From Escherichia coli (GTDB taxonomy: Bacteria > Pseudomonadota > Gammaproteobacteria > Enterobacterales > Enterobacteriaceae), in the NCBI RefSeq assembly GCF_003790525.1, contig NZ_CP033635.1: a DNA stretch of 64,000 nt. One strand, written 5' to 3'. The stretch's first letter is position 1. Each line of letters opens with the position of its first letter. The position numbers and the translations under genes are program-made. Positions 1 through 56,080 of the stretch are shown here, in pieces. The notes under the pieces were generated by a model. It did not search any database. It was not told where the DNA came from and saw only the letters and a list, made by a program, of their open reading frames with translations.

Positions 1-498
1 AAAGCGTATGTGGTGGGCGAAGGCGCACTGATTCATGAACTGTACAAAGCCGGTTTCACTATTACCGATGTGAACCCTGATTTTGTGATTGTTGGCGAAA
101 CGCGTTCCTACAACTGGGACATGATGCATAAAGCAGCCTATTTCGTCGCTAACGGTGCACGCTTTATCGCCACCAACCCGGACACCCACGGGCGCGGTTT
201 TTATCCGGCCTGTGGCGCGTTGTGTGCAGGCATCGAAAAAATCTCCGGACGTAAACCGTTCTATGTTGGTAAGCCGAGTCCGTGGATCATCCGCGCAGCA
301 TTAAACAAAATGCAGGCGCATTCGGAAGAAACGGTGATTGTCGGCGATAACTTGCGCACCGACATTCTGGCGGGCTTCCAGGCGGGTCTGGAGACGATTC
401 TGGTGCTTTCTGGTGTTTCATCGCTCGACGATATCGACAGTATGCCGTTCCGCCCAAGCTGGATTTACCCGTCGGTCGCTGAAATCGACGTTATCTGA
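1..498 (+). CDS. umpH: UMP phosphatase, HAD superfamily (5'-truncated by window edge; C-terminal ~165 aa)
   Basis: ORF in frame from nt 1 to stop at 496-498; translation matches recalled NagD/UmpH C-terminus and sits upstream of asnB as in E. coli. Confidence 0.85.
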   Translation, partial: KAYVVGEGALIHELYKAGFTITDVNPDFVIVGETRSYNWDMMHKAAYFVANGARFIATNPDTHGRGFYPACGALCAGIEKISGRKPFYVGKPSPWIIRAALNKMQAHSEETVIVGDNLRTDILAGFQAGLETILVLSGVSSLDDIDSMPFRPSWIYPSVAEIDVI

Positions 499-754
499 AT
501 AGCAACCACGCCTCAGGGCGTGGTTTCTTATTTTTAGCCATCATTAAAATCATCCTATTCAATAAAACCCGCCCAAAATTATCGATCCATCAATAAATAC
601 GTCACCACACCCTATCCTTTTTCACAAATCAGCAATCGCCATTACGTTTTTTATTTTTCCACCGCCAAATCGCTTGCGCACAGTGCTGCTTTGCGGCATT
701 TTTTTAAACAAGCAAACACAACAAGCAACAAATACCAGGTTAACGGAGAAGGTT

Positions 755-2419
755 ATGTGTTCAATTTTTGGCGTATTCGATATCAAAACAGACGCAGTTG
801 AGCTGCGGAAGAAAGCCCTCGAGCTGTCACGCCTGATGCGTCATCGTGGCCCGGACTGGTCCGGTATTTATGCCAGCGATAACGCCATTCTCGCTCACGA
901 ACGTCTGTCAATTGTTGACGTTAACGCAGGGGCGCAACCTCTCTACAACCAACAAAAAACCCACGTACTGGCGGTAAACGGTGAAATCTACAACCACCAG
1001 GCACTGCGCGCCGAATATGGCGATCGTTATCAGTTCCAGACCGGATCTGACTGCGAAGTGATCCTCGCGCTGTATCAGGAAAAAGGGCCGGAATTTCTTG
1101 ACGACTTGCAGGGCATGTTTGCCTTTGCCCTGTACGACAGCGAAAAAGATGCCTACCTGATTGGTCGCGACCATCTGGGGATCATCCCACTGTATATGGG
1201 CTATGACGAACATGGTCAGCTGTATGTGGCCTCAGAAATGAAAGCCCTGGTGCCGGTATGCCGCACGATTAAAGAGTTCCCGGCGGGGAGCTATTTGTGG
1301 AGTCAGGACGGCGAAATCCGTTCTTATTATCATCGCGACTGGTTCGACTACGATGCGGTGAAAGATAACGTGACCGACAAAAACGAGCTGCGTCAGGCAC
1401 TGGAAGATTCCGTTAAAAGCCATCTGATGTCTGATGTGCCTTACGGTGTGCTGCTATCTGGTGGCCTGGATTCCTCAATCATTTCCGCTATCACCAAGAA
1501 ATACGCCGCCCGTCGCGTGGAAGATCAGGAACGCTCTGAAGCCTGGTGGCCGCAGCTGCACTCCTTTGCTGTAGGTCTGCCGGGTTCACCGGATCTGAAG
1601 GCAGCCCAGGAAGTGGCAAACCATCTGGGCACTGTGCATCATGAAATTCACTTCACTGTACAGGAAGGTCTGGACGCCATCCGCGACGTGATTTACCACA
1701 TCGAAACCTATGACGTGACGACAATCCGCGCTTCAACACCGATGTATTTAATGTCGCGTAAGATCAAGGCGATGGGCATTAAAATGGTGCTGTCCGGTGA
1801 AGGATCTGATGAAGTGTTTGGCGGTTATCTTTACTTCCACAAAGCGCCGAATGCCAAAGAACTGCATGAAGAGACGGTGCGTAAACTGCTGGCCCTGCAT
1901 ATGTATGACTGCGCGCGTGCCAACAAAGCGATGTCAGCCTGGGGCGTGGAAGCACGCGTTCCGTTCCTCGACAAAAAATTCCTCGACGTGGCGATGCGCA
2001 TTAACCCACAGGATAAAATGTGCGGTAACGGCAAAATGGAAAAACACATCCTGCGTGAATGTTTTGAAGCGTATCTGCCCGCAAGCGTGGCCTGGCGGCA
2101 GAAAGAGCAGTTCTCCGATGGCGTCGGTTACAGTTGGATCGACACCCTGAAAGAAGTGGCGGCGCAGCAGGTTTCTGATCAACAGCTGGAAACTGCCCGC
2201 TTCCGCTTCCCGTACAACACACCGACCTCAAAAGAAGCGTATCTGTACCGGGAGATCTTTGAAGAACTGTTCCCGCTTCCGAGCGCCGCTGAGTGCGTGC
2301 CGGGCGGTCCTTCCGTCGCGTGTTCTTCCGCTAAAGCGATTGAGTGGGATGAAGCGTTCAAGAAAATGGACGATCCGTCTGGTCGCGCGGTTGGTGTTCA
2401 CCAGTCGGCATATAAATAA
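755..2419 (+). CDS. asnB: asparagine synthetase B (glutamine-hydrolysing), 554 aa
   Basis: ATG at 755 preceded by GGAGAA (745-750); N-terminus MCSIFGVFDIK with catalytic Cys2; the ORF-track start at 674 is an upstream in-frame extension. Confidence 0.95.
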   Translation: MCSIFGVFDIKTDAVELRKKALELSRLMRHRGPDWSGIYASDNAILAHERLSIVDVNAGAQPLYNQQKTHVLAVNGEIYNHQALRAEYGDRYQFQTGSDCEVILALYQEKGPEFLDDLQGMFAFALYDSEKDAYLIGRDHLGIIPLYMGYDEHGQLYVASEMKALVPVCRTIKEFPAGSYLWSQDGEIRSYYHRDWFDYDAVKDNVTDKNELRQALEDSVKSHLMSDVPYGVLLSGGLDSSIISAITKKYAARRVEDQERSEAWWPQLHSFAVGLPGSPDLKAAQEVANHLGTVHHEIHFTVQEGLDAIRDVIYHIETYDVTTIRASTPMYLMSRKIKAMGIKMVLSGEGSDEVFGGYLYFHKAPNAKELHEETVRKLLALHMYDCARANKAMSAWGVEARVPFLDKKFLDVAMRINPQDKMCGNGKMEKHILRECFEAYLPASVAWRQKEQFSDGVGYSWIDTLKEVAAQQVSDQQLETARFRFPYNTPTSKEAYLYREIFEELFPLPSAAECVPGGPSVACSSAKAIEWDEAFKKMDDPSGRAVGVHQSAYK

Positions 2420-2432
2420 GACGTATAATATT

Positions 2433-2460
2433 GCCCCGGAGAAATCCGGGGCAATTTCAG
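2433..2460 (+). terminator. hairpin downstream of asnB (gccccgg-agaaat-ccggggc) followed by a weak T-run
   Basis: inverted repeat 2433-2452 read directly; T-tract is weak. Confidence 0.4.
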
Positions 2461-2730
2461 TTACTGGGGCGCTTGTTGATTCTGATATGCAGTAAGGAAA
2501 TGTTCCGGGTTTGCCACATCGCTGTTTGACAACTCATTACTGTAGGCCAGTATTTCATAGATTAATTTCCCACCACTATTGTTGAATTCCGAATTTCATC
2601 CTGTATGACAAAAGAATGGCTGTAGGGTGGGGAAAAAACACAAAGTAAACAATAATTGACGAATATAGCGCCACGCTGTTCGCAACCTAACCAAACAGTC
2701 ACTTTCGAGCAATTTTCCTTGAAAAAGAGG

Positions 2731-2760
2731 TTGACGCTGCAAGGCTCTATACGCATAATG
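2731..2760 (+). promoter_or_regulatory. candidate sigma70 promoter of the tRNA operon (TTGACG -35, 17-bp spacer, CATAAT -10, GC-rich discriminator gcgccccgc)
   Basis: motifs read in sequence ~40 bp upstream of the first tRNA; GC-rich discriminator is typical of stringently controlled stable-RNA promoters. Confidence 0.55.
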
Positions 2761-2799
2761 CGCCCCGCAACGCCGATAAGGTATCGCGAAAAAAAAGAT

Positions 2800-2876
2800 G
2801 GCTACGTAGCTCAGTTGGTTAGAGCACATCACTCATAATGATGGGGTCACAGGTTCGAATCCCGTCGTAGCCACCA
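2800..2876 (+). tRNA. metT: tRNA-Met (elongator, anticodon CAT)
   Basis: 77-nt sequence GGCTACGTAGCTCAGTTGGTTAGAGCACATCACTCATAATGATGG...GTAGCCACCA with encoded CCA. Confidence 0.97.
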
Positions 2877-2884
2877 TCTTTTTT

Positions 2885-2969
2885 GCGGGAGTGGCGAAAT
2901 TGGTAGACGCACCAGATTTAGGTTCTGGCGCCGCAAGGTGTGCGAGTTCAAGTCTCGCCTCCCGCACCA
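2885..2969 (+). tRNA. leuW: tRNA-Leu (anticodon TAG), long variable arm
   Basis: 85-nt sequence GCGGGAGTGGCGAAATTGGTAGACGCACCAGATTTAGGTTCTGG...CCCGCACCA. Confidence 0.96.
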
Positions 2970-54885: not shown

Positions 54886-55296
54886 ATGTCCAGACCAACT
54901 ATCATCATTAACGACCTGGATGCCGAACGCATCGATATTCTGCTGGAGCAACCCGCCTATGCTGGTTTGCCAATCGCCGACGCGTTAAACGCAGAGTTGG
55001 ATCGCGCCCAAATGTGTTCGCCAGAAGAGATGCCACACGACGTGGTGACAATGAACAGCCGGGTTAAATTCCGCAATCTTAGCGATGGCGAAGTGCGTGT
55101 GCGCACGCTGGTGTATCCGGCAAAAATGACCGACAGCAATACTCAGCTTTCCGTTATGGCTCCGGTAGGTGCCGCACTGCTGGGGCTGCGCGTTGGCGAT
55201 TCCATTCACTGGGAACTGCCGGGCGGCGTTGCAACCCACCTTGAAGTGCTGGAACTCGAATACCAGCCAGAAGCTGCTGGCGATTACCTGCTTTAA
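54886..55296 (+). CDS. rnk: regulator of nucleoside diphosphate kinase (GreA/GreB-like C-terminal domain), 136 aa
   Basis: full-length match to recalled Rnk. Confidence 0.93.
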
Positions 55297-55330
55297 TCCC
55301 ATCTGCACAAGCGATAACTCGCTTTGCCCA

Positions 55331-55356
55331 GAGGATGCACTCGCATCCTCTTTCCG
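55331..55356 (+). terminator. hairpin after rnk (gaggatgc-actc-gcatcctc + TTTCC)
   Basis: perfect 8-bp stem, short T-run. Confidence 0.5.
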
Positions 55357-55438
55357 CTCAAATATCAACCAGATTTATCATTTTGCTCTTAAGCGCAGCA
55401 TTCTAATCTGAACTGGTTATTCATCTGCGGAACCTCAT

Positions 55439-55528
55439 ATGAGCGAAGCTCTCGGTATCACTGCATTTTATATATTCATAGCAGCAATTATTGTTGCTGC
55501 AGTGCTATACCTTGAACAACGCTGGTAG
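55439..55528 (+). CDS. candidate small hydrophobic protein, 29 aa (MSEALGITAFYIFIAAIIVAAVLYLEQRW)
   Basis: ATG...TAG ORF below the ORF-track cutoff; single predicted TM helix; weak Shine-Dalgarno (gcggaa); lies between rnk terminator and uspG promoter. Confidence 0.3.
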   Translation: MSEALGITAFYIFIAAIIVAAVLYLEQRW

Positions 55529-55651
55529 CGCCTGGTTTTATTTATTTTCCAGCTCAATAGCAAATTCAGATCAAATCAGCCTCGCAAATCATAGATTCAT
55601 AACCAATAATGTGCTGTTATGTATACATGCAAAAACAAGGAGAGAATGCTT

Positions 55652-56080
55652 ATGTACAAAACAATCATCATGCCAGTGGATGTTTTCGAAATGGAATTGA
55701 GCGACAAAGCGGTTCGCCACGCTGAATTCCTCGCCCAGGATGACGGAGTTATTCATCTACTTCACGTACTACCGGGGTCAGCCAGCCTGAGCCTGCACCG
55801 TTTTGCCGCTGATGTACGTCGTTTTGAAGAGCATCTGCAACATGAAGCAGAAGAACGTCTGCAAACGATGGTCAGCCACTTCACCATCGATCCTTCCCGC
55901 ATTAAGCAACATGTCCGTTTTGGTAGTGTGCGGGATGAAGTTAACGAGTTAGCGAAAGAACTTGATGCAGATGTAGTAGTGATTGGTTCGCGTAACCCAT
56001 CAATTTCAACTCATCTGTTGGGTTCTAACGCCTCGAGCGTGATCCGCCACGCCAATTTGCCGGTGCTGGTTGTGCGTTAA
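55652..56080 (+). CDS. uspG: universal stress protein G, 142 aa
   Basis: ATG 55652 with AAGGAGA 8 nt upstream; matches recalled UspG. Confidence 0.93.

Follow-up and report, generated by a model that had tools for sequence, protein, structure and literature searches.

The locus between rnk and uspG

We analysed a window of 64,000 nucleotides of Escherichia coli DNA and concentrate here on the spacer that separates rnk from uspG. At 55439..55528 on the plus strand, this spacer holds an ATG-initiated open reading frame (ORF) of 29 codons followed by a TAG stop codon, whose product is the 29-aa peptide MSEALGITAFYIFIAAIIVAAVLYLEQRW. The features of the locus to which we refer below are, in order of position:

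54886..55296, plus strand: rnk, the conserved upstream neighbour (ORF list, RefSeq), located approximately 145 nt upstream of yldA in 19 of 19 cross-species loci
55330..55351, plus strand: terminator-like hairpin of rnk, AGAGGATGC-ACTC-GCATCCTCT and then a short run of T; folding energy -20.1 kcal/mol (z = -5.2 relative to shuffled sequences)
55354..55633, no strand assigned: haplotype-specific segment of 280 bp, versus approximately 1615 bp (yldA allele 2, ybdR and uspG upstream region) in the K-12-type haplotype (blastn)
55402..55413, plus strand: candidate -10 region, TCTAAT and then CTGAAC, the latter aligned to a conserved CTTAAT box of other genera (low confidence)
55429..55432, plus strand: likely Shine-Dalgarno sequence GGAA, six nt before the ATG, read from the sequence and of presumed function
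55439..55528, plus strand: coding sequence of yldA, the Escherichia 'ybdR-less' allele (ORF call, RefSeq, NCBIfam model NF041476, codon-level purifying selection)
55652..56080 (RefSeq start), plus strand: uspG, the downstream neighbour, 123 nt after the yldA stop codon

Further out, rna is located upstream of rnk, and ahpF downstream of uspG on the opposite strand. A preliminary description of this DNA had reported the ORF as encoding a small hydrophobic peptide, placed between a terminator hairpin after rnk and the uspG promoter region. The ORF exists exactly as claimed, according to the ORF list and the annotation, and its placement between rnk with the hairpin and uspG was borne out. The same description had called the ORF unannotated. 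This is wrong, since RefSeq annotates yldA in this very haplotype, and the gene is known as b4734 in K-12.

Identity of the open reading frame

RefSeq names the exact ORF yldA, "small membrane protein YldA" (WP_001287361.1). When 5,426 complete E. coli genomes were searched, yldA was annotated under every full-length match listed; strain 7/2, for instance, matches with 100% identity over the query and has yldA annotated. In K-12 MG1655, yldA (b4734) is located at 643330..643419. The gene was named in 2018.

The peptide scores 59 bits (E = 3.2e-16) against the NCBIfam equivalog model for YldA, NF041476, whose curated cut-off is 45 bits, and residues 1-29 align to model positions 1-29. It also possesses all invariants of the YldA family, which are M1, E3, I7, A16 and the stretch A21-V22-L23-Y24-L25-E26. 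The Pfam model PF23689.1, 'YldA-like', gives 22.9 bits (E = 9e-5) for the window peptide and 73.6 for the K-12 allele, at a gathering threshold of 27. Precomputed matches of the later version, PF23689.3, extend even to YoaI, to which we return below.

Taken alone, the ORF is weak evidence for a gene. The peptide is hydrophobic, with a mean Kyte-Doolittle hydropathy of 2.5 over residues 4-25, and an ATG ORF of 25-60 aa this hydrophobic occurred in 12 of 2000 shuffles of the spacer. The spacer itself contains other ORFs of 20-69 aa. It is conservation together with family membership that lifts the ORF well above chance. Furthermore, YldA of K-12 is among the 'SPs detected in this study' of VanOrsdel et al. 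2018, where a chromosomal SPA tag was used, and it accumulates enough for immunoblot detection (PMC6001520). A tag experiment of this kind, which the preliminary description had named as a check, is thus already published for the K-12 allele. The ORF is almost certainly yldA and protein-coding. As a gene discovery this is already known, with yldA present in K-12, RefSeq, NCBIfam and Pfam. A literature search on the name of YldA found no functional study addressing its function, partner, topology or localisation.

Conservation and selection

An exhaustive profile search over 1.84 billion cluster representatives, with each allele query padded by its one in-frame upstream codon, returned only 48 matches. 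Its full-length members comprise 29 aa, except for N-terminally over-called ORFs and C-terminally altered variants. The UniRef label 'Protein MgtR' on YldA of C. koseri (P0055) was rejected as an annotation artefact, a mislabel by the pipeline.

A scan of one genome per species located 19 loci in Escherichia, Citrobacter, Enterobacter, Lelliottia and Huaxiibacter; the pattern employed, AIIVxAVLYL, is blind to variants such as AAVIV or AIIIA and says nothing on absence in Salmonella or Klebsiella. All 19 loci have an ATG start, exactly 29 codons, and a position approximately 145 nt downstream of rnk on the same strand. The window fits this arrangement, with yldA directly downstream of rnk on the same strand and upstream of uspG. 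Likewise, the 21 distinct orthologous nucleotide sequences, drawn from five named genera, are without exception ATG-initiated and exactly 29 codons long. Many indels are found in the surrounding spacer of the aligned orthologues, and zero in the ORF.

The nucleotide exchanges follow the reading frame. Among the 21 sequences, variable columns amount to 14 of 28, 14 of 28 and 27 of 28 at codon positions 1, 2 and 3, respectively, and mean pN/pS is 0.35 in the yldA frame versus 1.4-1.5 in the two shifted frames. Broken down by region, the ratio drops from 0.45 in codons 2-14 to 0.16 in codons 15-26 and rises again to 0.53 in the tail. Between the window allele and the K-12 allele, codons 15-26 show a pS of 0.90 and a pN of 0.09. 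All three stop codons, TAA, TAG and TGA, are in use, yet always at the same position. We conclude that the yldA sequence is under purifying selection as a protein.

This pattern, which is that of a protein-coding gene (21 orthologous sequences, pN/pS 0.35), comes from the very conservation analysis that had been proposed in the preliminary description, and it contradicts the reservation made there that the ORF may be non-coding: all orthologues examined keep frame and length amid flanking DNA that is rich in indels. A chance ORF in a non-coding spacer would agree with the weak Shine-Dalgarno sequence, the lack of a consensus promoter (see below) and the other short ORFs of the spacer, but conservation, selection, family evidence and the published detection of the K-12 orthologue all speak against it. 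With 19 conserved cross-species loci and codon-level selection on 21 sequences it is effectively refuted, and we attach next to no probability to it. A genuine gene for a small single-transmembrane protein, as originally suspected, is supported by the match to the YldA model, the purifying selection in frame and the detection of the K-12 orthologue (PMC6001520).

Two strains deserve a separate remark. HS-02 (NZ_CP172818.1) has the sole visibly disrupted window-type yldA among the copies that we met. In the equivalent of window 55294..55660, it shows several 1-nt insertions and a deletion of approximately 80 bp, by which the stop codon and the larger part of the yldA-uspG spacer are lost, and yldA is unannotated there; this may be a true pseudogene or may be due to assembly errors. 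The annotation of E. coli RM10466 lists a frameshifted ybdR pseudogene (1728..2965 of the compared locus) next to an intact yldA.

Expression signals

The hairpin after rnk was confirmed by folding; its T run is short, and a terminator scan left it unflagged. In 14 of 14 sequences from several genera, the stem core GAGGATGC/GCATCCTC is invariant and the loop variable. In view of the invariant stem core and the short T run, read-through from rnk is plausible. Two hairpins in fact follow rnk (window 55310..55351). The second stem varies less in sequence than a simple terminator would lead one to expect, and in most of the non-window sequences the second hairpin is followed by a conserved AAA(A/T)TCACC motif.

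A scan of the spacer for consensus sigma-70 promoters found no site. The 14-sequence alignment reveals partly conserved, TTAAT-like columns 25-35 nt upstream of the ATG. Transcription of yldA would probably come from read-through of the rnk hairpin, from a weak promoter within the last 85 nt upstream of the ATG, or from both. The ribosome-binding site is weak, as had been stated before. In the register of GGAA, the K-12 allele holds GGGAA and Enterobacter GGGGA, and all aligned orthologues are purine-rich there. Structure in the initiation region does not exceed that of shuffled sequences (z = +1.04).

Between yldA and uspG, neither folding (z = -0.26) nor the terminator scan gave a terminator-like structure, and transcripts may therefore extend beyond yldA into uspG in the window haplotype. 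Rfam finds no known RNA family in the spacer; its only match, a plant snoRNA model at 27 bits versus a threshold of 45, was treated as chance. With respect to published expression data, yldA occurs in the upregulated part of the gene table of an anaerobic fluoride study (PMC10100675).

Two alleles in two haplotypes

In approximately two thirds of the E. coli genomes, O157:H7 and K-12 included, the match to the window ends 58 nt past rnk, and another YldA is found instead. This K-12-type allele encodes MAEAFYILIGFLIMAAIIVMAVLYLENHS (WP_000796528.1; the K-12 protein is YP_009518757.1), and a convergent ybdR lies 3 nt further on. Judging from the blastn junctions, the haplotypes remain collinear as far as 55353, where the rnk hairpin ends, and join up again only near 55634, which leaves 18 nt to the start of uspG. 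The counterpart of the window segment 55354..55633 occupies 486..2100 of the O157 locus compared.

Among the complete genomes, 1817 of 5426 carry the window haplotype, which is devoid of ybdR, and 3605 the K-12 haplotype with ybdR. Since these sum up to 5422 of 5426, practically every strain keeps one yldA allele. Strains with the window haplotype include, among the matches listed, ST131, ST95 and Nissle. A yldA haplotype occupies a median of one place per genome, and its chromosomal position is fixed across genera. A few genomes contain two places that match a yldA haplotype, and two matches of the K-12-type segment lie on plasmid-classed records.

Both alleles are located approximately 140 nt downstream of rnk on the same strand, comprise 29 codons, and keep M1, E3, I7, A16-V19 and A21-E26; their NF041476 scores are nearly equal (59 bits for the window allele, 57.9 for K-12). 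However, only 15 of 29 residues (52%) and 48 of 87 nucleotides are identical, the tail reads ENHS in K-12 and EQRW in the window, and the next gene is the convergent ybdR at a distance of 3 nt in K-12 but uspG, on the same strand, in the window. Protein synthesis has been demonstrated for the K-12 allele alone (PMC6001520). The ybdR-yldA pair of K-12 is reported to show convergent overlapping transcription and was described as an 'excludon' (PMC12288877).

K-12-type YldA shares 22 of 29 residues with YldA of C. amalonaticus, which makes this protein nearer to it than the window allele with 15 of 29. The 90% identity cluster of the window allele, in turn, also includes E. marmotae, E. albertii and cryptic Escherichia clades; a peptide identical to that of the window is encoded in an E. 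albertii genome, and the window allele is also found in a named Escherichia sp. isolate. The proximity of the one allele to C. amalonaticus, together with the sharing of the other with E. albertii, suggests that the K-12-type yldA-ybdR segment came from outside Escherichia by old recombination or that the polymorphism is very old. Across genera, ybdR is independently present or absent after yldA. Wherever it is present among the loci of Enterobacter, Huaxiibacter, Lelliottia and Citrobacter, it is always convergent and directly after yldA. As presence and absence are also found within Enterobacter, the ybdR polymorphism recurs across genera.

Downstream, the uspG upstream region is wholly different between the haplotypes, and homology is regained no earlier than 18 nt before the uspG ATG. 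The first approximately 70 nt of uspG coding DNA are about 87% identical between them, and the UspG accession, WP_000278505.1, is the same in 7/2 and O157. Regulation of uspG may thus differ between strains with and without ybdR.

A 67-aa 'double YldA' (P0046; ERZ28624427 scaffold_2756, 2703..2906) fuses the first 19 window-type codons in frame to the upstream region of the K-12 type, which leads into a complete allele of that type. Found on one metagenome scaffold of 4 kb only, it is probably an assembly chimera of two co-occurring strains and, less probably, a real tandem or hybrid.

The arrangement of the haplotypes bears on the question whether the peptide itself matters, or rather its translation, with yldA serving as a leader or upstream ORF that controls in cis uspG or the fate of the rnk 3' region. 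The position 123 nt upstream of uspG, on the same strand and with no terminator-like structure in between, would suit such a role. Yet conservation of the ORF is just as strong in loci where an oppositely oriented ybdR comes between yldA and uspG, purifying selection acts on the amino acids themselves (core pN/pS 0.16), and the K-12 peptide accumulates to a level visible in immunoblots (PMC6001520). We consider a leader ORF very unlikely.

Relationship to YoaI

The YoaI equivalog model NF041475 matches the window peptide with 30 bits (E = 4e-7), aligning YldA 3-29 to YoaI 8-34. As its curated cut-off is 45 bits, we rejected the window peptide as a YoaI orthologue; the two are homologous nonetheless. 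Comparison of the two families by hhalign gave a probability of 96.6% (E = 6e-10) for an alignment of YldA 1-28 to YoaI 6-33, and reciprocal matches between the YoaI and YldA profiles exist as well. A profile built from YoaI only found this ORF alone among the 985 ORFs of the window (E = 1.5e-6). The query of the YoaI homologue search was an over-called database entry of 50 aa. A YoaI-like protein of 34 aa, VNDPMMAEALMITTGFIAIAMVLVASVLFLERQG, bridges the two families. Pairwise BLASTP of YldA versus YoaI gave no match, and the relationship is visible by profile methods only. By these profile comparisons YldA is a paralogue of YoaI, with the qualification that homology between hydrophobic peptides of 29-34 residues rests partly on composition. 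The homology is not new, because the precomputed matches of PF23689.3, "YldA-like", already contain YoaI.

According to Vellappan et al. (PMC11429745), YoaI is membrane-localised with a cytoplasmic C-terminal tail, and its residues Ser26, Val27 and Glu31 are invariant. The exchanges E31A and E31Q abolish binding and activation of the sensor kinase EnvZ, and overexpression of YoaI leads to a longer lag phase that is independent of EnvZ (Vellappan et al., PMC11429745). At an offset of 5, Ser26, Val27 and Glu31 of YoaI correspond to Ala21, Val22 and Glu26 of YldA, all of which are invariant in YldA. Both are single-helix peptides that align end to end and share an N-terminal Glu (E8/E3), Val27/Val22 and the juxtamembrane Glu31/Glu26. 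In contrast to YldA, YoaI has 34 aa with five extra N-terminal residues, carries Ser26 where YldA has Ala21, and is encoded at a separate, PhoB-controlled locus. Owing to the replacement of Ser26 by Ala, partner specificity may differ in YldA.

The longer lag phase upon YoaI overexpression (PMC11429745), together with the shortness and strong hydrophobicity of YldA, would also fit a type I toxin-like peptide that damages the membrane when expressed. We judge this highly improbable, given that yldA is essentially single-copy at a fixed chromosomal position across genera, that Rfam finds no known antisense or other RNA family in the spacer, that the tagged protein was detected from its native locus in K-12 (PMC6001520), and that the sequence is conserved more strictly than generic hydrophobicity requires.

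Peptide anatomy and a proposed mode of YldA action

Conservation within the peptide is uneven. In addition to the invariant positions listed above, I17, I18 and V19 are nearly invariant, and the N-terminus always reads M-x-E. The outer half, residues 4-14, is variable yet hydrophobic, with a mean hydropathy of 1.95-3.60 across orthologues. The tail of the 21 orthologous sequences is ENHS, ENHW, EQRW, ERHR, ERHW or ERRW, i.e., E-[RNQ]-[HR]-[WSR]. The conserved part is thus limited to one helix end and the juxtamembrane glutamate.

We propose that the peptide forms one transmembrane helix in the inner membrane, with its N-terminus (M-x-E) outside and the short C-terminal tail in the cytoplasm, as in YoaI. 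The outer half of the helix (residues 4-14) would need only to stay hydrophobic, and the invariant inner half from A16 to E26 (AIIV.AVLYLE) would be the contact surface. With this inner-leaflet surface and the juxtamembrane Glu26, YldA would most likely bind a larger inner-membrane protein and tune its activity. The proposal is founded on the analogy with Glu31 of YoaI, which is required for binding and activation of EnvZ. By the same analogy, a sensor kinase is the leading candidate partner.

MgrB and SafA, both acting on PhoQ, as well as MgtS and AcrZ are small modulators of this sort. Their likeness to YldA is one of functional analogy only, with no sequence relationship found. The general logic, by which small inner-membrane proteins bind and tune larger membrane proteins, has been reviewed (PMC12648545).

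Graded by its parts, the overall explanation, namely the known gene yldA encoding an inner-membrane peptide that likely tunes a larger membrane protein, is in our judgement very probable. That YldA acts through binding a larger membrane protein is, as a claim of its own, evenly balanced on the analogy with YoaI, and the identity of this partner as a histidine kinase is put forward with considerable reserve.

AcrZ, KdpF, CydX and MgtS are accessory subunits or stabilisers of transporters or respiratory complexes, and YldA could act in the same manner rather than as a kinase modulator. Such a role is consistent with the same size class and single-helix architecture, and the concentration of conservation in the membrane-embedded half suits helix-helix packing. 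On the other hand, YoaI, the one homologue that has been characterised, has a sensor kinase as its target and works through a Glu that is kept in YldA, and no conserved gene for a transporter or complex is found nearby, the neighbours being rnk, ybdR or uspG, and ahpF. An accessory subunit is therefore a possible reading of YldA that we regard as rather doubtful.

Implications

Returning to modulation of a partner in the manner of YoaI, the invariant inner-leaflet surface of YldA, which ends in a Glu that matches the EnvZ-binding Glu31 of YoaI, provides a testable lead on YldA function.

For the species, the present comparison means that E. coli is split, approximately one third versus two thirds, between deeply divergent yldA alleles that are tied to absence or presence of ybdR and to different uspG upstream regions. 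Both aspects might be joined in one scenario, which we consider improbable in its entirety: YldA would modulate a kinase or another membrane protein as YoaI does, its two alleles would have become as distant as those of different genera through an old swap of the rnk-to-uspG spacer, and B2-type and K-12-type strains would differ in the wiring of this stress-related locus. If true, this swap would have given YldA a different outer helix half, brought the gain or loss of ybdR, and put uspG under another promoter.
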